The notes beneath the pieces are model-generated. The model was not told the origin of the DNA, ran no database searches, and saw nothing but the letters and a program-made list of their open reading frames with translations. DNA of 34,396 nucleotides from Candidatus Nomurabacteria bacterium RIFCSPLOWO2_01_FULL_33_17 (GTDB lineage: Bacteria > Patescibacteriota > Minisyncoccia > Phycocordibacterales > UBA9973). Each line of letters begins with the position of its first letter. The first letter of the stretch is position 1. The stretch is from NCBI GenBank assembly GCA_001786995.1, contig MFUO01000006.1, positions 1 to 34,396 on the forward strand, read 5' to 3'. This document shows, one piece after another, positions 1 to 33,969 of the stretch. The position numbers were made by a program, and so were the translations under genes.

Positions 1-105
1 GGAACAGCGGTAGCGGAGAGACACTGCTTCCGCAGTGTCTCGGAGCGGACGATGTGCCGTGACGGAATTCATTACCTCACTTTGTTTTGAAAATAGGTTC
101 TAACT

Positions 106-129: not shown

Positions 130-201
130 GCCCTTGTAGTTAAATGGATATAACTGCGGACTTCTAAGCCGTTATTGTAGGTTCGATTCCTACCGAGGGC
201 A
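130..201 (+). tRNA. tRNA-Arg (anticodon UCU)
   Basis: Hand-folded cloverleaf. Acceptor GCCCTTG/CGAGGGC, D arm GTTA/TAAC, anticodon loop CTTCTAA (TCT), T arm GTAGG-TTCGATT-CCTAC, discriminator A. CCA is not encoded. Confidence 0.9.
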
Positions 202-244
202 CAAATAAAAAAGACTATAATTATAGTCTTTTTTATTTGTGCCC
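197..244. repeat. 48-bp perfect loop-less palindrome overlapping the last 5 nt of tRNA-Arg
   Basis: GGGCACAAATAAAAAAGACTATAA (197-220) is the exact reverse complement of 221-244. Confidence 0.95.
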
Positions 245-365
245 GAGAGCAAACATCTGCATGTTTGCGTGTAGGATATCGAAAAGCTTTTCGTTGTGTA
301 TGAGAAATTTATAATTTTGAATACACCGAAAAGGTGTACAGTTCATGTAATGAAAGATCCCTACC
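241..365 (+). repeat. tRNA-linked module, copy A
   Basis: Order of parts: pseudo-acceptor GCCCGAG, hairpin GCAAACAT-CTGC-ATGTTTGC (249-268), GTAGG (271-275), 77-nt core 281-357 identical to 1661-1737, then GATCCCTACC (356-365). Confidence 0.9.
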
Positions 366-377
366 ACAAATATAAAT

Positions 378-403
378 AAAAAAGGACTGCTTTCGCAATC
401 CTT
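378..403 (-). terminator. intrinsic terminator of the 425-736 minus-strand gene
   Basis: On the minus strand: AAGGATTGC-GAAA-GCAGTCCTT followed by T6, about 20 nt after the stop codon. Confidence 0.7.
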
Positions 404-424
404 AAAAATATTTTGGCAGATATA

Positions 425-736
425 TTAGTCTGCTGGCTCACTAATATCAACACGATAGGATGCAAAAGGGATGTCTTCATCTTCCGGGAAATTTCCCTCA
501 TATCTTTTTTCGATCGGGTCTTTGACTTCACTTAAAGAAAGTGGAATCATATACCTTTCTGTGTTTTTATTGAAATTTGGTTTTTCGTTATTAGGGATTC
601 TTGTTTTTGTGAATACAATAATTTTATGACCATCTATCTTAAGATTAAGATAATAACCTCTTTTTAGTTTTTTGTACTGTTTCCAGTTCAAATTGATGCA
701 AAGGATTTTTCGATTTTCTGTGCTCATCGTTACCAT
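425..736 (-). CDS. hypothetical protein, 103 aa, acidic C-terminal region containing EDEDIPF
   Basis: Intact ORF with its own terminator, divergent from 893-1390. No family recognised. Confidence 0.55.
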   Translation of the reverse strand: MVTMSTENRKILCINLNWKQYKKLKRGYYLNLKIDGHKIIVFTKTRIPNNEKPNFNKNTERYMIPLSLSEVKDPIEKRYEGNFPEDEDIPFASYRVDISEPAD

Positions 737-892
737 AGCCTTAATTTTTTAGTTTTAGTTAAGTGAAGTTTGAATTGAATATTAATATACCAATACAAGA
801 GTTTATTGTCAATGAAAAATAAGATAGGTTTTGTCTTATTTGACATTTTTATGTATTATGTATAAAATAAAGAAAACTTAAAAAAGCGACAT

Positions 893-1390
893 ATGGAACA
901 TTTTAAAATTTTTTGCGGTGATTGGATTTATCCATCACGTGATAGTTCTACAAAAATAAACTATCCAATTGACATACCATTGGTAGCTGAAATATATCCA
1001 CGAAGTGATAGAAAAGGGAAGATGGTTTCTGAAAGTGGAATGATTAAGGAACACTTAAACAGTTCTCGCTTCCTTAAATTACATTTAAGAACTGATAATA
1101 TACTTTGCATTCTTTCTCTTCACAATGAAACTGAAAGCATGTTTCTGAAAGAAATTAATGAAGATATTTCTTTCGATCGAGAAACGCTCGCTAGGCCTAA
1201 TTCTCTTTGGTATGATGGGAAATATCCAGGAAAAATAATAAAGCATAAGAACAGAGAAGAGAATGAATGGAATTCTATTTTCTTCACCAGCATTTTACTG
1301 CAAGTATTTATGGCTGGAGAAAAATTACCAAATGGTATTTCTTTTCGTAACGCAACGATTCCCGAGATAGAATCTCTCGGGCGTTGGTAA
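893..1390 (+). CDS. hypothetical protein, 165 aa
   Basis: Intact ORF followed by a terminator hairpin. A TTGACA box lies in the upstream region. No family recognised. Confidence 0.55.
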   Translation: MEHFKIFCGDWIYPSRDSSTKINYPIDIPLVAEIYPRSDRKGKMVSESGMIKEHLNSSRFLKLHLRTDNILCILSLHNETESMFLKEINEDISFDRETLARPNSLWYDGKYPGKIIKHKNREENEWNSIFFTSILLQVFMAGEKLPNGISFRNATIPEIESLGRW

Positions 1391-1415
1391 AACGAGTCTA
1401 ATTTATTGAATATAA

Positions 1416-1445
1416 CCCCAGTTTATTATAATTGGGGCTTTTTTA
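1416..1445 (+). terminator. intrinsic terminator
   Basis: CCCCAGTT / AATTGGGG stem followed by a T-run (CTTTTTT). Confidence 0.65.
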
Positions 1446-1494
1446 TATTGCATTTTTGTATTTTTATGATAGACTGTTTTTATCAATTTAATAT

Positions 1495-1567
1495 GGGCCG
1501 TTAGCTCATCTGGTAGAGCACCTCATTTGCAATGAGGGGGTGGCAGGTTCGAGTCCTGTACGGTCCA
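1495..1567 (+). tRNA. tRNA-Ala (anticodon UGC)
   Basis: Acceptor GGGCCGT/ACGGTCC with the G3:U70 alanine identity pair. D arm GCTC/GAGC, anticodon loop TTTGCAA (TGC), T arm GCAGG-TTCGAGT-CCTGT, discriminator A. CCA is not encoded. Confidence 0.92.
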
Positions 1568-1626
1568 CAGATAAATTAAAACACGCTTGATAGAAATGTC
1601 AAGTGTTTTAATTTATCTGTGGCCGT
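1561..1626. repeat. long inverted repeat overlapping the tRNA-Ala 3' acceptor strand
   Basis: Arms 1565-1584 and 1603-1622 are perfect 20-bp reverse complements. With one bulged T the pairing extends to ACGG(T)CC / GGCCGT (1561-1626). Confidence 0.9.
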
Positions 1627-1742
1627 AAGCAAATAAACTGCTTTATTTGCCTCAGAACGAGAAAAGCTTTTCGTTGTGTATGAGAAATTTATAATTTTGA
1701 ATACACCGAAAAGGTGTACAGTTCATGTAATGAAAGAGTCCT
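1621..1742 (+). repeat. tRNA-linked module, copy B
   Basis: Order of parts: GGCCGTAAGC (resembles the tRNA-Ala 5' end GGGCCGTTAGC), hairpin GCAAATAAA-CTGC-TTTATTTGC (1629-1650), 77-nt core 1661-1737 identical to 281-357, then GAGTCCT (1736-1742). Confidence 0.9.
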
Positions 1743-1749
1743 CTTTTTA

Positions 1750-1758
1750 TGCTAAAAT
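1750..1758 (+). promoter_or_regulatory. extended -10 TGCTAAAAT, 6 nt upstream of ATG 1765
   Basis: TGnTAnnnT motif. The spacing implies a leaderless or near-leaderless mRNA. Confidence 0.45.
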
Positions 1759-1764
1759 AAATTT

Positions 1765-2238
1765 ATGAAGAAAATTATATTAGTCTTATTAATTTGCGTA
1801 ATTTTAATTTTGGGTTATTGGTTGATATCGCCTTTTTGGCGTAATAAAGTAGTTAGTGAAAATTTACCAAATACTATTGATAATATTTCTGAAGATAAAA
1901 AAGATAATGAAATTATGATTTTTAAAAAAGGAACTTTTACAGGTTTTGATAAAATTCATAATGGTTCCGGTGATATTGTTTTAGTACAAATTAATGGAAA
2001 AAATTATATTAGATTTGAGGAAAATTTTAATGTAAATAATGGACCAGATTTATATGTTGGTTTGGGTAAAAATGGTGAATATATAAAAGATAGTGAATTA
2101 GGTAAACTAAAAGGTAATATTGGTTCTCAAAATTATGAGCTACCAGAAAATATTAATTTTGAAAATGTTCATGAAGTTTGGATTTGGTGTAAAGCTTTTT
2201 CTGTACCTTTTGCAAAAGCTATTTTATTTGATTTTTAG
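1765..2238 (+). CDS. DM13 domain-containing protein with N-terminal membrane anchor
   Basis: N-terminal hydrophobic helix. G-F...H..SG...NGPDLYV pattern typical of DM13 domains. Confidence 0.75.
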   Translation: MKKIILVLLICVILILGYWLISPFWRNKVVSENLPNTIDNISEDKKDNEIMIFKKGTFTGFDKIHNGSGDIVLVQINGKNYIRFEENFNVNNGPDLYVGLGKNGEYIKDSELGKLKGNIGSQNYELPENINFENVHEVWIWCKAFSVPFAKAILFDF

Positions 2239-2266
2239 TTATCCACAGGTTCAATACTAATATCGC

Positions 2267-2295
2267 TTGCATGTGAACGAGCGTTCACATATAAT
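2267..2295 (+). promoter_or_regulatory. promoter with embedded LexA (Cheo-type) SOS box
   Basis: -35 TTGCAT (2267-2272), 17-nt spacer, -10 TATAAT (2290-2295). The spacer holds palindrome TGTGAACGAGCGTTCACA (2272-2289) with GAAC-N4-GTTC at 2275-2286. Confidence 0.75.
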
Positions 2296-2303
2296 ATAAA
2301 CAT

Positions 2304-2513
2304 ATGACACGAGAACAATACATACGAATATTGCAAAGAGAATTAGATAAACTAAATCAAGAAATTGACATGAAAATCATTTCTAAAGAAAGTTATTCTA
2401 AAGAATCTAAAGAGCATAAATTACTACTTAAAAAGATTTATCAACATACTCATAAAAATTCTTTGAAAAACTTCTTTATGAAAATATTTACTCAACGATC
2501 TTTGCAATTTTAA
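2304..2513 (+). CDS. hypothetical small Lys/Glu-rich protein, 69 aa, first gene of the lexA operon
   Basis: ORF starts 8 nt after the -10 box and ends 3 nt before lexA. No family recognised. Confidence 0.5.
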   Translation: MTREQYIRILQRELDKLNQEIDMKIISKESYSKESKEHKLLLKKIYQHTHKNSLKNFFMKIFTQRSLQF

Positions 2514-2516
2514 TAT

Positions 2517-3080
2517 ATGAATGAATATAAAAATAAACTTGTGGCTTTTTATGCATCAGCAAGTCGTATGCCGACTTATAGCGAAATGATGAAGTTATTT
2601 AGTTTCAAATCTAAAAATGCAGTTGCAAGACTTGTCGAAAAATTAATTGATACCGGAATTGTTAAAAAAGATTCACTGGGGCGACTGATACCCAGTGCAT
2701 CTTTTAGTGATGTTCCATTGTTGGGTTTAATCAAAGCTGGTTTTCCATCACCTACGGAAGATATTGTTGAAAGCACAATTAATTTAAATAATTTTTTAAT
2801 TCGCAAAAAAGATTCGACATATATACTAGAAGTCGATGGTAACTCTATGATTGATGCTCATATTGCTGATGGGGATATGGTTATCGCTGAAAAGACTGAA
2901 TTTGCCCGCGACCGAGAAATTGTAATTGCCGAAGTTGATGGGGAATTCACTATGAAATATTTTCGACAAGAGGGAAGTAAGATTTGGCTTGAACCAGCCA
3001 ATAAAGATTTTAAACCAATCTATCCAGAAAATGATCTAAAAATTTGTGCAATAGTAAAGGGTGTAATTAGGAAGTATTAA
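2517..3080 (+). CDS. lexA: LexA-family repressor (winged-helix domain plus S24 peptidase domain)
   Basis: Ala-Gly cleavage site in LIKAGFPSP, Ser nucleophile in GNSM, Lys in TMKYF. Length is 187 aa. Confidence 0.88.
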   Translation: MNEYKNKLVAFYASASRMPTYSEMMKLFSFKSKNAVARLVEKLIDTGIVKKDSLGRLIPSASFSDVPLLGLIKAGFPSPTEDIVESTINLNNFLIRKKDSTYILEVDGNSMIDAHIADGDMVIAEKTEFARDREIVIAEVDGEFTMKYFRQEGSKIWLEPANKDFKPIYPENDLKICAIVKGVIRKY

Positions 3081-3085
3081 TAAAT

Positions 3086-4081
3086 ATGAAAAAAAAGATT
3101 TTAAAAAATAATAAAGAACTAGTTATATACCAAACAAAATCAGGAGCGATTGAGTTGCGGGGGGATTTCTCGCACGAAACTTTATGGGCGACACAGGCAC
3201 AAATCGCTAATGTTTTTGGTGTTGATACTAGAACAGTTAACGAACATATAAAAAATATTTTAAAAACAAATGAATTGAAAGAATCTGCAACTGTCCGGAA
3301 TTTCCGGATAGTTCAAATCGAGGGTAATCGTCAGGTAGAACGTGATATATATCACTATAATTTGGATATGGTGATATCGATAGGTTATAGAGTTAATTCA
3401 AAAACAGCTACTCTTTTTCGTCAATGGGCTACAAAGACTTTAAAAGAGCACTTAGTAAAAGGCTATACGATAAACAAAAAAGTTCTTTTAAAGAACCATG
3501 AGCAGTTTTTAAAGACAGTATCTGAGATTCAATTACTTTTACCAACACATACAATTTTAGACCCAAAAGCTATGATTGATTTAGTGAAAGAATTTTCCAT
3601 TACTTGGAGTAATCTTGATGCATATGATAAAGATCTTCTATTTGGAAAAGGTGTTACTAAAAAGAAGATTAAAGTAAAAAGTGAAGAAATATTAAAAGAA
3701 ATAAATGAGTTAAAATTGGAATTACTTAAAAAAGGTCAAGCTACAGATATTTTTGCTCAAGAAAGAGTAAGAGGTAGTATAGAAGGTATCATTGGTAATG
3801 TCATGCAGTCTTTTGGTGGTGCCGATTTGTACCCAAGTCTTGAAGAGAAAGCCGCACACCTTTTATACTTTATAGTAAAAAATCATCCGTATATTGATGG
3901 TAATAAACGCTCGGGAGCTTTTGTTTTTATTAGATTTTTAAGAAAAAATGGTATAAAAGGTGCTCAAAATATAAACCCAGCAGGTCTTGTAGCTATAACT
4001 CTTCTGATTGCCGAAAGTGATCCAAAACACAAAGATAAACTAACCGCATTGGTTGTGGAGCTACTAAGAATAGGGAAGTAA
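3086..4081 (+). CDS. RhuM-family N-terminal domain fused to a Fic/Doc (death-on-curing-like) domain
   Basis: N-terminus matches the RhuM signature (LWATQAQIANVFGV, ISIGYRVNS, FRQWATKTLKEHLVKGY). C-terminus has the Doc-type motif HPYIDGNKRSG. Confidence 0.8.
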   Translation: MKKKILKNNKELVIYQTKSGAIELRGDFSHETLWATQAQIANVFGVDTRTVNEHIKNILKTNELKESATVRNFRIVQIEGNRQVERDIYHYNLDMVISIGYRVNSKTATLFRQWATKTLKEHLVKGYTINKKVLLKNHEQFLKTVSEIQLLLPTHTILDPKAMIDLVKEFSITWSNLDAYDKDLLFGKGVTKKKIKVKSEEILKEINELKLELLKKGQATDIFAQERVRGSIEGIIGNVMQSFGGADLYPSLEEKAAHLLYFIVKNHPYIDGNKRSGAFVFIRFLRKNGIKGAQNINPAGLVAITLLIAESDPKHKDKLTALVVELLRIGK

Positions 4082-7328: not shown

Positions 7329-7694
7329 ATGGAAAAGAAACAAAAACCACAAATATATACTGTTGATGCAACTGGACAAGTATTGGGCCGTATGTGTTCG
7401 TCTATTGCAAAAATTTTGATGGGTAAAACAACTGTGGGGTACGAAAGACATATTTTATCAGGAGCAAGTGTAAATGTTATAAATGCGAGTAAATTATTCA
7501 TGACTGAAAAAAGAAAGCTTGAAACAATGCATGAAAAATATTCCGGATATCCAGGAGGTCTGAAATATAAAAGCAATGCTGAAATAATTTCTAAAAAAGG
7601 TTATGCGGAATTAATTCGTCTTGCTGTATATAATATGTTGCCACCAAATAGACTTCGTCAGCCTATGATGAATAAATTAAAGATTACAGAATAA
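7329..7694 (+). CDS. rplM: 50S ribosomal protein L13
   Basis: VDATGQVLGRMCSSIAKILMGK signature. Confidence 0.92.
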   Translation: MEKKQKPQIYTVDATGQVLGRMCSSIAKILMGKTTVGYERHILSGASVNVINASKLFMTEKRKLETMHEKYSGYPGGLKYKSNAEIISKKGYAELIRLAVYNMLPPNRLRQPMMNKLKITE

Positions 7695-7698
7695 TAAT

Positions 7699-8154
7699 AT
7701 GGAAACAAAAATAAAAACAAAATCCACAGCTGCCCATGGAGACCTGCCTACCGGACAGGCAGGTAAAAAATACATTCGTGCTATTGGTCGCCGTAAAACA
7801 GCAACAGCTGTAGTTAAAATTTATCAAGACGGAACAAATACTTTTACAATAAATGGTAAAAAAAGTAGTGAATATTTTCCAACAGCTGAATTACAAAAAG
7901 TTATTCATGACCCTGTAACAAAGACAAAAAATACAGAGAAATATGATATTGTTGTAACTACCAAAGGTGGTGGTATCCATGGTCAAGCCGAAGCAGTTCG
8001 TCATGGTATTGCTCGTATTCTTGCAAGTTTTGATGAAGAAACAAAGGGTAAAGTTAAAAAACTTGGATTCCTAAAACGCGATCCTCGTGCTAAAGAACGC
8101 CGTAAATTCGGTCTCAAAAAAGCCCGTAAGAGTCCACAATGGAGTAAGAGATAA
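7699..8154 (+). CDS. rpsI: 30S ribosomal protein S9, with an N-terminal extension of about 20 aa
   Basis: GRRKTATAVVKI...GGGIHGQAEAVRHGIARIL...KKARKSPQWSKR. Confidence 0.93.
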   Translation: METKIKTKSTAAHGDLPTGQAGKKYIRAIGRRKTATAVVKIYQDGTNTFTINGKKSSEYFPTAELQKVIHDPVTKTKNTEKYDIVVTTKGGGIHGQAEAVRHGIARILASFDEETKGKVKKLGFLKRDPRAKERRKFGLKKARKSPQWSKR

Positions 8155-10376: not shown

Positions 10377-11000
10377 TCTTTTGCGGTTGTCTATCGCATA
10401 GCGAATAGTTTGATCATCAGATTCGGAAAGGCGAGAGCCTAAAGACATACCACGGCCAAGGCTGGTGATGGTTATTTTGTTTTTATTTAATTTATCGTGA
10501 ATAGTTTCTAAATAATCAAGCGTTATAGATTCCATAATTTCACCTTCTGGCGAAATTGGAAAAGCTAAAATAATTTCTTCCAATCCTTTTTCAATCCAAT
10601 ATTCTATTGTTTTTGGAATGTAACTTTTTTCTATAATATGTACATCTTCTGCCATTTCAATTTTATTTGGAAATGGAACTATCGCTAAAATTCCTCGATA
10701 TGATTCTATAATATAAAGTGAATCATAATCTTCTTGATTTGCAAGTAGTGTTAGGATTTTTGGATTTCGATTTTCATTTATACAAACATTACAAATAGGG
10801 CCGTCACCAAGACTTGTTGCACCGCATAAATTACAACTAAAAACATGCCCCTTTAAATTATTTAAAATATTTACTAATTCATTTGATAAAACACCATGAT
10901 TGCGAGTCAAAGCATATGCAAAACGGCGGGCTTGCCGTGGTCCTATACCAGGTAATTTGCCAAGAACTTTTACTAAATTTTCTAAATTAGATGTATGCAT
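10368..11000 (-). CDS. recR: recombination protein RecR
   Basis: LPGIGPRQARRFAY helix-hairpin-helix, C4 zinc finger (CNLCG...CNVC) and a Toprim region. Confidence 0.9.
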   Translation of the reverse strand: MHTSNLENLVKVLGKLPGIGPRQARRFAYALTRNHGVLSNELVNILNNLKGHVFSCNLCGATSLGDGPICNVCINENRNPKILTLLANQEDYDSLYIIESYRGILAIVPFPNKIEMAEDVHIIEKSYIPKTIEYWIEKGLEEIILAFPISPEGEIMESITLDYLETIHDKLNKNKITITSLGRGMSLGSRLSESDDQTIRYAIDNRKRAI

Positions 11001-16523: not shown

Positions 16524-16525
16524 TA

Positions 16526-16563
16526 GTATAACAAATTTCAACGGCCGTTGAAATTTGTTATAC
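16526..16563. repeat. 38-bp perfect loop-less palindrome centred on CAACGGCCGTTG
   Basis: GTATAACAAATTTCAACGG followed by its exact reverse complement. Confidence 0.9.
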
Positions 16564-16611
16564 TAACTGAATGATTTGGTTAATTTTATGGGTGCGTGGT
16601 ATTATGAATTT

Positions 16612-25235: not shown

Positions 25236-25775
25236 ATGAAAAGATATATTAATAATTTAATAATTTTGACAGCTTTCATATTTATTTTTATGTTTAGCTT
25301 GTCTTTAAAAGCTGATGCATCAATTGGTTTCTCAATTGGTTTTGGTGGTAGTAATTATTCTTCAGGTTATAATTATTATGATGGTGGTTATGATCCATAC
25401 ATGAATGATTATTATGGATATAATACTAATTACAATTATTCAAATTATTATTCTCCAAGTTATTATGCTGGAACTAATTATAATTATGCTGGTACTCCTT
25501 TATATAATAATTTGTATAACAATTATTATAATCAAGGTTATTATAATAACTCAGTAGCCCCAATGAATTGTTTTATGTCTGGTTATCCATGTGATAATTA
25601 TGGGTATAATAACTACAACTATAATAATTATAACAATAACTATAATAATTATAGTCTATCTTCTCCATTATATACTTACGGAGGAGATTCGAATTATTAT
25701 TCAAATAATAATTATTATGATTATGGTTCATCCCTTTCTTACTCTAATTCCGGTTCTATGTATAGACGACGCTAA
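25236..25775 (+). CDS. secreted Tyr/Asn/Gly-rich low-complexity protein
   Basis: Signal-peptide-like N-terminus (cleavage context LKADAS) followed by about 150 aa dominated by Y, N, G and S. Confidence 0.65.
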   Translation: MKRYINNLIILTAFIFIFMFSLSLKADASIGFSIGFGGSNYSSGYNYYDGGYDPYMNDYYGYNTNYNYSNYYSPSYYAGTNYNYAGTPLYNNLYNNYYNQGYYNNSVAPMNCFMSGYPCDNYGYNNYNYNNYNNNYNNYSLSSPLYTYGGDSNYYSNNNYYDYGSSLSYSNSGSMYRRR

Positions 25776-32745: not shown

Positions 32746-32756
32746 TATCTTTCAAA

Positions 32757-32792
32757 AAACATTCTCACATTCTGCAGAATGTGAGAATCTTT
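32757..32792. repeat. 36-bp palindromic repeat, copy 1
   Basis: AAACATTCTCACATTCTGCAGAATGTGAGAATCTTT. The core 32761-32788 is a perfect 28-bp palindrome. Confidence 0.92.
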
Positions 32793-32844: not shown

Positions 32845-33114
32845 ATGAAAACGGCGAAGCAAATGGAAAGGCATTTTAAGGGTTTGGCCAATCATTGGCG
32901 AATTAGTATTTTGATTTTGGTTGGTAAAAAATCCGGTATAACTTTAGATCAAATTACCAACGAACTTAATGCAAATTTTAAAACTATTTCCGAGCATACT
33001 CGTAAACTTGCTCAGTCTGGGCTTTTGAATAAGAAATACCAAGGTCGAAATGTAGTCCACTCACTTTCACCATATGGCGAAAAGTTGGTTGAGTTTATCA
33101 AATCCTTCAAATAA
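32845..33114 (+). CDS. ArsR/SmtB-like winged-helix transcriptional regulator
   Basis: 89 aa with the HTH region [28 protein letters not shown] followed by a wing. No metal-binding Cys motif is obvious. Confidence 0.6.
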
Positions 33115-33148
33115 ACATTCTCACATTCTGCAGAATATGAGAATGTTT
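33113..33148. repeat. 36-bp palindromic repeat, copy 2
   Basis: AAACATTCTCACATTCTGCAGAATATGAGAATGTTT. It begins inside the ArsR-like stop codon and ends 9 nt before the msrB ATG. Confidence 0.92.
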
Positions 33149-33548: not shown

Positions 33549-33926
33549 ATGCAATTTTTAATACATTATTTAATCGGTTTGGTTTTGGGGTTCATTTTGG
33601 AATTTATTTATCGATCTGTAGAATCCAAACGTTTTATTAAGCCACTTTTTATAAATTTGCAAATGTATGGATTTAGTACAGCCTTTTTATACTTTTTGTC
33701 GTTATTTAATTTACCAATTTATTTTTTAATATTATTTATTTTGATTTTTACTACGGGAATCGAATTTGTAATTGGCTACATATATTTAAAATATAATAAT
33801 ATAATGCTTTGGGATTATTCAAGAGAATATTTAAATTATAAAGGTTTAATTTGTCTAAAATTTTCGATTGCTTGGGTAATACTCTCATTGATTTACTATT
33901 ATTTTATAATGCCTATCTTTTTATGA
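33549..33926 (+). CDS. small polytopic membrane protein (possibly the 'putative ABC-transporter type IV' / DUF1113 family)
   Basis: Four hydrophobic segments and a GxxxEFxYR motif near the N-terminus. The family assignment is tentative. Confidence 0.5.
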   Translation: MQFLIHYLIGLVLGFILEFIYRSVESKRFIKPLFINLQMYGFSTAFLYFLSLFNLPIYFLILFILIFTTGIEFVIGYIYLKYNNIMLWDYSREYLNYKGLICLKFSIAWVILSLIYYYFIMPIFL

Positions 33927-33933
33927 CTTGTAT

Positions 33934-33969
33934 AAACATTCTCATATTCTGCAGAATATTGGAATGTTT
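33934..33969. repeat. 36-bp palindromic repeat, copy 3
   Basis: AAACATTCTCATATTCTGCAGAATATTGGAATGTTT, with two arm mismatches. Confidence 0.9.

Follow-up and report, generated by a model that had tools for sequence, protein, structure and literature searches.

Two tRNA genes are each followed by a module with an identical core

We analysed a 34,396-nt stretch of DNA from Candidatus Nomurabacteria bacterium RIFCSPLOWO2_01_FULL_33_17 (hereafter, the window). Two intact tRNA genes on its plus strand, tRNA-Arg(TCT) at 130-202 (ARAGORN; Rfam RF00005, 62.6 bits) and tRNA-Ala(TGC) at 1495-1568 (ARAGORN; Rfam), lie upstream of two composite modules on the same strand, which we term A and B, respectively. 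Directly behind tRNA-Arg stands a terminator-like hairpin formed by a perfect 24+24 bp palindrome (197-244), whose arms (197-220 and 221-244) are 100% complementary and fold with 0 nt between them. The left arm of this palindrome takes in the final 5 nt of the tRNA (GGGCA), and the right arm closes with TGCCC, where the outer left arm of module A (TGCCCGAG, 240-247) begins. This outer arm is a partly decayed version of the reverse complement expected from tRNA positions 66-73 (TGCCCTCG). There follow a branch hairpin of 8 bp with a CUGC loop (GCAAACAT-CTGC-ATGTTTGC, 249-268), the inner left arm (GTAGGATATCGAA, 271-283; expected reverse complement of tRNA 54-65, GTAGGAATCGAA), and a 77-nt core (281-357), the first 3 nt of which are shared with that arm. 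The right arm (GATCCCTACC, 356-372) repeats the tRNA from position 57 onwards in direct orientation but in decayed form, with GAGGGC deleted and the trailer ACAAATA following. A terminator-like hairpin on the minus strand (382-403), serving a convergent 103-aa ORF (425-736), closes the region and marks the 3' boundary of module A.

Module B follows the same plan. A long imperfect hairpin behind tRNA-Ala (1560-1626), in which the acceptor 3' strand and trailer (ACGGTCCACAGATAAATTAAAACAC..) pair with ..GTGTTTTAATTTATCTGTGGCCGT, holds a terminator-like stem (1583-1606) at its tip. Next come a 9-bp branch hairpin with a CUGC loop (GCAAATAAA-CTGC-TTTATTTGC, 1629-1650), homologous to that of module A and differing from it by compensated changes, a decayed inner left arm (TCAGAACGAGAA, 1652-1663; 8/12 match to the expected ACAGGACTCGAA), the second copy of the core (1661-1737), and a right arm (GAGTCCT, 1736-1742) that equals tRNA-Ala positions 57-63, the remainder being lost. 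Directly past the module, a DM13 gene starts at 1765, and homology between the window and locus L010 begins at 1761, immediately after module B.

A reading made from the letters of this DNA alone (the sequence-only reading) had reported cores identical at 77/77 positions; we confirm this and extend the match to 82 nt at 98%. For a 47-nt sub-pattern, the window gives exactly these 2 matches, versus 0 expected (100 shuffles). That reading was likewise correct on the CTGC-loop hairpins with compensated stems at both positions, on the two T-stem strands repeated in copy A (GTAGG, 271-275; CCTAC, 360-364), and on the trailer registers: 356-372 (GATCCCTACCACAAATA) corresponds to 185-194 plus 201-207, as does 1736-1742 plus 1757-1763 to 1551-1557 plus 1571-1577. 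It had further described pseudo 5' acceptor strands at the start of each module. GCCCGAG indeed lies at 241-247, whereas GGCCGTAAGC occupies 1621-1630 instead of 1622-1631, an offset of 1 nt. What had been taken for copies of the tRNA 5' end are in fact Watson-Crick complements of the tRNA 3' strand, and the outer left arm has this character in other genomes, too. As that reading had also noted, the window contains neither integrase nor transposase; a reverse transcriptase is equally absent, and none of the three occurs within 6-10 kb in relatives.

The modules recur behind tRNA and tmRNA genes in other genomes

The two modules of the window recur in about 20 independent contigs from several samples, and other tRNA genes, in unrelated MAGs and metagenomes, are followed by related modules. 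This contradicts the case in which the 77-mer would be confined to two loci as a simple segmental duplication, which had been named as grounds for abandoning the idea. Using the core sequence or a covariance model alone, we retrieved 12 copies of two core types (core1, to which the window cores belong, and core2) from Paceibacterota, Saccharibacteria and unclassified contigs. The earlier proposal had been to count how many further copies sit directly 3' of tRNA genes: 11 of the 12 do so, at a distance of 30-90 nt from the end of a tRNA gene (Arg, Ala, Val, Pro, Met, and four times Asp) or of a tmRNA gene (twice), and the twelfth stands behind a decayed tRNA-Arg. All 12 share the strand of their tRNA or tmRNA gene. 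A genome scan whose pattern extended into the variable P4 hairpin of the core gave no matches, and candidate copies L025 and L029 were dismissed as chance matches in GC-rich coding DNA.

For a comparison of whole modules, we assembled 15 from about 12 genomes, a small sample with loci partly picked for containing core1. One scaffold bears several different cores, a refinement of the sequence-only reading. Core1, core2 and core4 look related and core3 looks separate; the three core3 sequences yielded no reliable alignment and hence no consensus structure. The modules apparently constitute an undescribed family located behind tRNA and tmRNA genes of Patescibacteria (CPR bacteria), and full-text literature searches returned no published description of them.

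Coding capacity and database matches

Length differences among copies are not multiples of three. We considered a small peptide encoded in the core, given that frame 1 is open, and rejected it over 1-4-nt indels in P3 between copies. At gathering and E-value thresholds, Rfam 15 returned only tRNA, tmRNA and noise for the window and six related loci, with no match to Intron_gpI. Within 241-372 and 1621-1763, no tRNA was called even at E <= 10, the only calls being those at 130-202 and 1495-1568. The conserved motifs of hammerhead, twister, pistol and hatchet ribozymes, retron msr/msd and archaeal bulge-helix-bulge introns were not found in the three-way junction, as judged by eye and by Rfam.

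A phage origin was likewise set aside: the 2.9 million viral contigs of IMG/VR contained no real match, and L030 proved to be a chance match inside a gene. Following synteny through a 165-aa ORF (893-1390) led to homologues that do not lie beside tRNA genes, and only to an unrelated tRNA-Glu islet. For an IS30-like gene in L019, no link to the modules was established.

The modules share one layout, built from the 3' end of the neighbouring gene

All 15 modules display the same order. Behind the gene comes a terminator-like hairpin, then tRNA positions 66-73 in reverse complement, a small branch hairpin whose loop is often CUGC, tRNA 54-65 in reverse complement with the T-loop in full, the structured core, and a direct tRNA copy starting at position 57. 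In every module, the segment 5' of the core deviates from the reverse complement of tRNA 54-65 by 0-4 mismatches. T-loops such as TTCAAGT, TCCGATT and TGCAAGT make the orientation of the arm unambiguous, and at G.U sites the arms track the tRNA 3' strand, not the 5' strand (Asp 49.65, Val 6.67, tmRNA 3.70). The left arm is thus an inverted copy of tRNA 54-73, which amends the sequence-only reading of a 5'-strand copy.

Modules measure about 110-190 nt, including cores of 60-130 nt. The repeating unit runs from tRNA position 57 through the end of the core, comprising the 57-73 copy, the terminator-like hairpin, the complement of 66-73, the branch hairpin, the complement of 54-65 and the core. 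In the chromosome, a second 57-73 copy follows the core and later decays, with the tRNA gene left intact. The resulting target duplication starts at tRNA position 57 and spans 7-30 nt; the direct copy is perfect over 16-30 nt in L027, L026-Gly, L040, L041 and L042, and decayed in the window.

The arms pair as an acceptor/T-stem minihelix in which the core replaces the T-loop. [quoted passage not shown] Since the left arm forms a palindrome with the upstream tRNA and a minihelix with the downstream remnant, the two are circular permutations of one helix. It is the tRNA sense strand that folds. The complete L027 module is predicted to fold at -60.4 kcal/mol (z = -6.9). In circular folds of a single period, 72-78% of the bases pair, and L027 has an uninterrupted run of 35 bp. 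Acceptor pairing has been lost in many copies.

Structure is conserved in the core and the branch hairpin

Core1, as numbered in copy A (CM R1, 96.8 bits), consists of J1 (281-286), P1 (287-293 with 327-333), a UU bulge (294-295), P2 (296-301 with 321-326), a GA/GA internal loop (302-303 and 319-320), P3 (304-309 with 313-318), J2 (334-341) and P4 (342-346 with 350-354, GUA loop). Compensatory changes affect 13 of the 22 core pairs, and 99% of cells are paired, in a covariance model-fitted alignment that leans towards the fitted structure. None of 500 shuffles reached this level, and slid controls gave 29-56%. In an unfitted MAFFT alignment, four of the five P4 pairs were compensated. The branch hairpin keeps its structure as its sequence varies (module A versus 10 other modules), and the CUGC and UGUAA loops are conserved together with junction bases. 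Covariation, suggested earlier as a check on the hairpin, is therefore found in branch hairpins and core alike. The module structure is under selection, and the compensated base pairs of the core are what either a structured RNA or a single-strand element would display.

In the window, intact cores stand beside decayed right arms, which could equally mean a host-level RNA function of the core.

Sites are empty or differently filled among relatives

A comparison of orthologous loci had been proposed as a search for empty sites, and these exist. Among syntenic relatives, L042 and L043 have an empty tRNA-Asp site; the others have it filled, with core1 in L038, L040, L041 and L027, a core2-like core in L044 and a core3-like one in L045. 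The tRNA-Thr(GGT) site is empty in L022, L043, L044 and L045 and carries core4 in L041 and L042 and core3 in L027, and the tRNA-Met2 site is occupied only in L041. Tandem arrays stand behind one gene in L027 and L028. The modules of L040 and L041 are about 97% identical, as compared to 78.5-80% for the flanking genes and unalignable flanking intergenic DNA. L023 is a chimera, joining an Arg-type left half to an Asp-type right half across the core. This family is probably mobile.

Two observations bear on how copies arise. In L040, a lineage-specific T62 occurs in tRNA and remnant alike, and the inverted arm holds the ancestral G. A simple crossover would leave one element-derived copy, so that a target duplication or later gene conversion fits better. 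In the window, an identical core is combined with different arms, and the arms would therefore have been rewritten during or after the move to a new tRNA, a step we hypothesise. We also asked whether the tRNA 3' half derives from the element, as an A.C mismatch in the L041 tRNA-Met2 T-stem seemed to suggest; L043 and L044 have this mismatch as well, with no module behind that gene, and this candidate was dropped. The tRNA 3' end may be restored by element DNA or plainly duplicated.

With a co-oriented tRNA gene on either side, the tRNA-Met module of L041 is probably transcribed.

A candidate family of target-mimicking insertion elements

The sequence-only reading had offered two interpretations, a small element targeting the T-loop or a tRNA-tethered structured RNA family, and is supported in this. 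Both can hold together, and the data fit a DNA-level as well as an RNA-level role. We lean, at somewhat better than even confidence, towards the view that the modules are miniature, non-coding insertion elements that are specific for the 3' ends of tRNA and tmRNA genes and mimic their target.

Under such a mechanism, the repeating unit would be a small circle or hairpin, or a derivative of one, entering the T-loop between tRNA positions 56 and 57. A recombinase supplied in trans may read the conserved T-loop/T-arm at entry, and the folded arms would imitate the double-stranded target, comparable to CTX phage attP folded at dif or a folded attC at attI. Following insertion, palindrome correction (template switching) could keep the arm adjoining the tRNA perfectly complementary, and gene conversion could maintain the remnant. 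The core might be conserved for mobility, or for a harmless self-contained fold once transcribed. No recombinase linked to the modules was found in the window or near the copies in relatives, nor did a circular form or an excision junction turn up in the assemblies.

The alternative that survives best is that of a structured small RNA serving the host and made together with the tRNA, of the 3' external transcribed spacer type. Its minihelix would lend stability or supply signals for processing by RNase P, RNase Z or RNase III, its core would be functional, and mobility would be incidental or absent. P1-P4 and the branch hairpin covary strongly, the CUGC and UGUAA loops and junction bases are kept, G.U pairs are confined to the tRNA sense strand (pair 24-39; the L040 T-stem), cores in the window have outlasted their decayed arms, all 12 copies lie on the tRNA strand, and the L041 Met module, flanked as it is, would have to be transcribed. 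We nevertheless judge this account improbable, if worth keeping in sight. Unrelated cores occupy one tRNA site in syntenic relatives and others leave it empty, and different cores stand side by side in tandem arrays. The arms are exactly Watson-Crick complementary even at tRNA G.U pairs and decay with age, which looks like templated DNA copying and not like selection at the RNA level. Moreover, a terminator-like hairpin precedes each module, with no promoter-like site between it and the core in the window, and acceptor pairing is gone in many copies.

We have little faith in the proposition that the modules are attL/attR scars of integrase-bearing islands or prophages whose cargo was later deleted. 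It is favoured by the intact tRNA with a displaced 3' fragment behind it as direct repeat, by the occupation of tmRNA genes in addition to tRNA genes, by tandem accretion, and by a conventional small islet with a tRNA-Glu 3' remnant in L031 and L033. However, the layout is identical to the nucleotide in 15 modules, excluding random deletion end points; the 5' and 3' T-stem copies lie 60-130 nt apart, separated by the core, versus 7 nt for the core site of a tyrosine recombinase; and covariation signifies selection on the fold. Nor did any copy adjoin a full-length integrase-bearing relative, or the viral contigs provide a match.

Similarly doubtful to us is an analogy with bridge or seek RNAs, by which the arms would be programmable guides of RNA-guided recombination, the module RNA pairing with the tRNA gene 3' end and directing a trans-encoded recombinase. 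Two target-complementary segments (8 nt and 12 nt) do surround a conserved hairpin beside a structured core, and modules A and B combine one core with different target-matched segments in a single genome. Yet recombinase genes, IS110-like or otherwise, are missing from the vicinity, the target segment has been duplicated rather than split, both arms match one target stretch instead of its left and right halves, and the arms decay in older copies. Finally, an assembly artefact or local segmental duplication limited to this contig, to which the 48-nt palindrome (197-244) lends some substance by producing fold-back chimeric assemblies (L001, L004), is already refuted by the recurrence of both modules in independent contigs, by the related modules elsewhere and by the fact that A and B have only the 77-nt core in common.

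If the modules are indeed target-mimicking inserts, they represent a hidden layer at Patescibacteria tRNA and tmRNA genes that annotation pipelines miss, and would relate to tRNA-targeting integrative elements as MITEs do to transposons. They would offer a minimal system to study the T-arm as a recombination site and new structured core families for functional study, might account for the breaks and fold-back chimeras that affect tRNA loci in assemblies of CPR metagenomes, and could serve as strain-level markers of recent DNA exchange in unculturable organisms. A more far-reaching version, which we regard as speculative and rather unlikely, would make them the smallest site-specific integrative elements yet: gene-less, self-complementary rods or mini-circles of ~110-190 nt whose target-mimicking fold is the sole att site. 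Their interchangeable cores would be functional RNAs or ssDNAs driving insertion (for instance, a scaffold recruiting a host T-arm-binding enzyme, or a small ribozyme) and their arms would be rewritten upon each move, in effect a programmable, homing, non-coding element.

Relation to islands, repeats, tRNA-like RNAs and folded attachment sites

Tyrosine integrases put genomic islands and prophages into tRNA and tmRNA genes, with the T-loop as one sublocation, as reportedly documented by Williams 2002 (NAR) and the Islander database. tmRNA genes serve as integration sites (PMC11915505). Like such islands, the modules target the 3' part of the gene and leave the gene intact, bear a displaced fragment beginning in the T-loop as a direct repeat beyond the insert, and form tandem arrays. 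Unlike islands, they measure 110-190 nt rather than kilobases, lack an integrase, any ORF and cargo, and hold an inverted besides the direct target copy. Their pseudo T-stem halves are split by a structured core whose fold is conserved by covariation, at 60-130 nt instead of the inverted arms with 6-8 bp overlap of an island attR.

Correia, RUP, BOX, ERIC and REP/BIME are bacterial MITE-like repeats that are transcribed and fold. The modules resemble them in being small, non-coding and multi-copy, with inverted arms and a stable hairpin; they can also be likened to these repeats in that the latter are tolerated in transcribed intergenic DNA and need a trans-acting enzyme. MITEs have constant, element-specific terminal repeats and a short target duplication of fixed length, whereas module arms represent the neighbouring tRNA 3' end and vary by copy (those of A and B differ despite an identical core), the duplication covers 7-30 nt, and insertion is confined to tRNA and tmRNA genes.

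tRNA-like or tRNA-linked RNAs include the tRNA-like domain of tmRNA, YrlA, mascRNA and the 3'ETS-leuZ sponge. Viruses, too, have tRNA-like structures (PMC7749636). The modules share with tRNA-like RNAs a coaxial acceptor/T-stem helix, with a single hairpin standing in for both D and anticodon arms, like helix 2 of tmRNA, and with 3'ETS RNAs the location in the tRNA 3' trailer. In contrast to tRNA-like RNAs, they possess no D-loop, no encoded CCA and, with the core in its place, no T-loop; their stems copy the adjacent tRNA, Rfam detects no match, acceptor pairing is dispensable in many copies, and no cloverleaf with D, anticodon and T arms (RF00005) is found.

Group I introns insert in the T-loop of tmRNA genes (PMC11915505), and in the modules, too, a tRNA-like arm has a foreign, structured sequence set into its T-loop. 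Such introns average 293-414 nt, contain a catalytic core and interrupt a functional gene, whereas the 60-130-nt module cores, devoid of an Intron_gpI match, interrupt a pseudo-copy without D and anticodon arms behind an intact gene. As to IS110-type bridge or seek RNAs, no DEDD recombinase lies near the modules, and the target is duplicated, not split.

Folded single-stranded attachment sites are known from the CTX phage attP(+) at dif (PMC3089051, PMC4246890) and from integron attC (PMC4792948). The modules differ in that their target is the tRNA/tmRNA T-arm, not dif or attI, in that they are little more than an att hairpin, with the loop (that is, the core) as the most conserved part, and in that the folding strand is the sense strand; neither Xer nor IntI could be tied to them. 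In CTX and attC, recombination by XerCD or IntI takes place on single-stranded DNA, with the recombinase acting in trans (host-encoded for CTX), and by analogy we propose that one may act likewise on the modules. In both systems as in the modules, inverted arms fold to mimic a duplex target, an intervening loop of about 90 nt or more is possible, the target is regenerated, tandem arrays arise, and structure is kept rather than arm sequence. The mimicry is evident in silico, with the module arms providing an exact complement and an exact copy of tRNA 54/57-73.

Two tRNA genes are followed by modules with an identical core

ARAGORN and Rfam both place tRNA-Arg(TCT) at 130-202 and tRNA-Ala(TGC) at 1495-1568, and each gene is followed by a module (A and B, respectively) containing a folded 77-nt core, core1. 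A repeat finder bore out the sequence-only reading that the two cores (281-357 and 1661-1737) are identical, the match reaching 82 nt at 98%, and a 47-nt core sub-pattern occurred in the window only in these two cores (0 matches expected by chance). Neither module matched Rfam 15 at any threshold. The reported repeat periods of 171 nt (A) and 185 nt (B) likewise held, each running from tRNA position 57 through the final core base, and the smaller features lay where that reading had put them, except for GGCCGTAAGC, which lies at 1621-1630. What had been described as a pseudo 5' acceptor copied from the tRNA 5' end proved to be something else: each tRNA is followed by a long hairpin whose left arm takes in the gene's own 3' acceptor strand, and in module A positions 197-220 pair perfectly with 221-244 (inverted repeat I14); this segment thus complements the tRNA 3' end.

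The same locus, including both modules, was present in ~20 contigs from several aquifer samples. Several megahit contigs (L001 and L004 among them) are chimeras that fold back on themselves, with the 48-nt palindrome following tRNA-Arg (197-244) as the mirror point, and many other contigs terminate there; the modules therefore cause assembly breaks. In a strain variant (L019, 446-1393), an IS30-like protein with an HTH_38 domain replaces everything past window position 886.

The window is ordinary chromosome of a low-GC Patescibacteria (CPR) bacterium, with infA, rpsM-rpsK-rpsD-rpoA-rplQ, rplM-rpsI, dnaB, recR, scpAB, ftsW, gatB, gap, trpS or tyrS, and asnS or aspS among its genes. Integrase and transposase genes, earlier said to be missing, were indeed not found in the 34,396 nt, nor was a reverse transcriptase. 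The region separating module B/DM13 from infA (2304-4081) encodes a small ORF, an S24 (LexA-like) peptidase and a RhuM-Fic protein, which look like an accessory or toxin-type cassette wedged ahead of the ribosomal operon. Window 1761-2687, spanning at least DM13, the small ORF and the beginning of the S24 gene, recurs in a different context in another locus (L010), with homology beginning at 1761. An ORF of Asn/Tyr-rich low-complexity repeats (25236-25775; D5, D6, I3) had no Pfam match.

The family resides at the 3' ends of tRNA and tmRNA genes

Scanning other metagenomes and MAGs with the invariant parts of the core returned modules behind tRNA-Asp (metagenome contigs L021, L022 and L038, and a Paceibacterota MAG, L027), tRNA-Val (metagenome contig L024), tRNA-Pro (a Saccharibacteria MAG, L026) and, in an uncultured bacterium (L028), the tmRNA gene adjoining smpB, as well as one on a metagenome contig with no intact tRNA ahead of it (L023). 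L040 (Asp) and L041 (Asp and Met) were reached by way of a neighbouring protein. A covariance model built on six cores gave 93-101 bits for all core1 copies listed and 36.9 bits for a diverged homologue, core2, directly behind the L028 tmRNA gene. Linkage to tRNA genes extended to these copies: in total, all 12 lie on the tRNA strand, 11 of them 30-90 nt behind a tRNA or tmRNA gene, and the sequence upstream of the twelfth (L023), though decayed, aligns to tRNA-Arg and its hairpin.

Modules carry inverted and direct copies of their target

The order of parts is identical in every module examined. First comes a hairpin resembling a terminator, whose A and U tracts are complementary, and then tRNA 66-73 in reverse complement, the base facing the discriminator included. 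A spacer of 1-2 bases (mostly A or AG) leads to a branch hairpin of 6-9 bp, which 12 modules possess and which has a CUGC loop in 8 of these. After (C)GU follow an inner arm, the reverse complement of tRNA 54-65; the core, which opens with GAA, GGA or GCA, three bases complementary to T-loop positions 54-56; and a remnant, the direct copy of the tRNA from position 57. The inner arm differs from the expected 12-mer by 0-4 mismatches in 15/15 modules and matches perfectly in L027-Asp and L041-Thr. Non-palindromic T-loops (TTCAAGT, TCCGATT, TGCAAGT) make its inverted orientation unambiguous. Where the tRNA has a G.U pair (Asp 49.65, Val 6.67, tmRNA 3.70), the arm has A, never G, which marks it as a complement templated by the 3' strand.

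The core fold is conserved by compensatory changes

The complete L027 module folds at -60.4 kcal/mol (z = -6.9) into an acceptor stem of 7 bp, the branch hairpin and a T-stem lengthened by ACUU:AAGU, with the core replacing the T-loop; other modules fold likewise. Core1 comprises J1 (GAAAAG), P1 (CUUUUCG/CGAAAAG), a UU bulge, P2 (GUGUAU/AUACAC), a GA/GA internal loop, a variable P3, J2 (GUGUACWG) and P4, a 4-5 bp stem with a (U/A)GUAA loop. Covariation, which the earlier reading had proposed as a check, was evident: when nine distinct sequences were aligned to the model, compensatory changes appeared at 13 of 22 core pairs and 99% of cells paired, values that 0/500 shuffles reached; slid controls paired at 29-56%. 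Fitting this alignment to the model favours structure, yet the changes are plain in the raw sequences. They include P1 variants CUUUCCG/CGGAAAG and ACUUUCC/GGAAAGU and P2 variants AUGUAU/AUACAU and AAAUAU/AUAUUU, and in a MAFFT alignment of eight modules 4/5 P4 pairs were compensated. Because G.U pairs occur on the sense strand of the tRNA, this is the folding strand.

Folded as a circle, the unit from tRNA position 57 to the core end is 72-78% paired and forms one long helix of T-stem, acceptor, A/U tract and terminator stem (35 consecutive pairs in L027), with the branch hairpin lateral and the core at the far end. The perfect palindrome formed with the upstream tRNA and the mini-tRNA helix formed with the downstream remnant are thus one helix read in two registers. 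An integrated circle would produce this, as would slightly more than one repetition of the unit.

Modules are gained and lost between relatives

Among relatives sharing gatCA-188aa gene synteny, occupancy of tRNA sites differs, and empty sites of the kind that the sequence-only reading had suggested seeking do exist. The tRNA-Asp site is empty, with a plain terminator only, in L042 and L043, and filled by core1 in L038, L040 and L041, a core2-like module in L044 and a GC-rich core3-like module in L045. The tRNA-Thr(GGT) site is empty in L022, L043, L044 and L045, and holds core4 in L041 and L042 and core3 in L027; tRNA-Met2 is filled in L041 only and empty in all others examined. Arrays also occur (tmRNA, core2 module, core1 module and a fragment of another core2 in L028; tRNA-Asp, core1 module, core3 fragment and core3 module in L027), the gene-adjoining module being the most complete.

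Between L040 and L041, gatA and the 188-aa gene differ by ~20%, flanking intergenic DNA is unalignable and the entire tRNA cluster is inverted; their Asp modules are ~97% identical, differing only in one remnant base and the hairpin loop, where the sequences look like a flip. In L023 the core links a left half of Arg type to a right half of Asp type, on a contig that may be an assembly chimera. Cores are more similar within than between genomes: A equals B in the window, and the two L041 cores have common P2 and P3 variants.

Other palindromes and tRNA-derived debris

A 44-nt palindrome, AAACATTCTCACATTCTGCAGAATGTGAGAATGTTT, occurs at window 32749-32792, 33105-33148 and 33926-33969 (D3, I1, I2, I4), 77-100% identical to the reference copy, in intergenic DNA around msrB and small ORFs; it may serve as an operator or terminator or represent a further repeat family. 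Between two hydrolase genes (16524-16565) lies TAGTATAACAAATTTCAACGGCCGTTGAAATTTGTTATACTA (I11), an overlapping 26-nt palindrome without mismatches.

Upstream of tRNA-Arg, an unusually GC-rich stretch (window 1-70; L005 160-360) contains long inverted repeats CCGCCCTCGCCCGCCACC ... GGTGGCGGGCGAGGGCGG, a 10-bp hairpin and a terminal GCCGTGACGGAATTC, an ending similar to the 3' ends of core3 modules (CGTGACC, then a T-loop half). This stretch has no Rfam match and may be a remnant of another module.

In L031/L033 (17936-18480), tRNA-Glu is followed by a ~480-nt islet with a 63-aa ORF, bounded by a direct repeat including a decayed tRNA 3' end and promoter-like TTGACAAATC..TATAAT; L032 has different DNA there. 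The islet represents a conventional small insertion at a tRNA site within the same bacterial group. The 5' pseudo-tRNA fragments GTAGCTGTTTTGGTTAGAAAGCGC.., GCAGGCGTAGCTGTTTTGG.. and GCAGTCGTAACGAG upstream of tRNA-Met2 and tRNA-Asp (L040 ~10715-10836; L045 ~7408-7516 and ~7592-7706; L044 ~8012-8074) form another class of tRNA-derived debris, located on the 5' side.

A possible mechanism and a possible RNA role

We propose that a small unit is inserted into the T-loop, between positions 56 and 57, by a recombinase supplied in trans. The unit's folded arms would mimic the target duplex; parallels are the folded attP of CTX phage (at dif) and attC (at attI) (PMC3089051, PMC4246890, PMC4792948). 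The T-loop being the most conserved DNA common to all tRNA and tmRNA genes, this could account for the broad target range.

Window modules A and B differ in their arms and are identical in their cores, so either the arms are rewritten from each new target or gene conversion has homogenised the cores. We favour palindrome correction by intrastrand template switching, a known mutational process, together with gene conversion of the direct repeat. This pair would explain the strict Watson-Crick arms, the perfect 24-35 bp palindromes of complete modules, the flipped loop and the L040 remnant tracking its own tRNA. That remnant has T62, as does its tRNA, and the inverted arm retains the ancestral G, a sequence pattern that argues against a simple crossover with one of two copies element-derived.

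A possible host-level RNA role for the cores is suggested by the window, where they are intact beside decayed arms, and by the Met module of L041, whose position between two tRNA genes of the same orientation makes its transcription probable. This role and the mobile element that we propose are compatible: the modules could be a mobile element with a transcript that has to fold in a harmless or useful way.

Comparison with known systems

A full-text literature search found no description of such modules. Integrase-borne islands have the same target and a displaced 3' fragment, whereas the modules lack an integrase, cargo and a contiguous core site. MITEs are alike in size and inverted arms, but the module arms are the target's own sequence. 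CTX attP and attC share target mimicry by folding, but any Xer or IntI link of the modules would be conjectural; tRNA-like RNAs share the acceptor/T-stem helix, but the modules are without T-loop or D-loop. The more radical reading, a programmable target-mimicking mini-circle, we consider unlikely; we file the modules as a previously undescribed variety of tRNA-targeting integrative elements.
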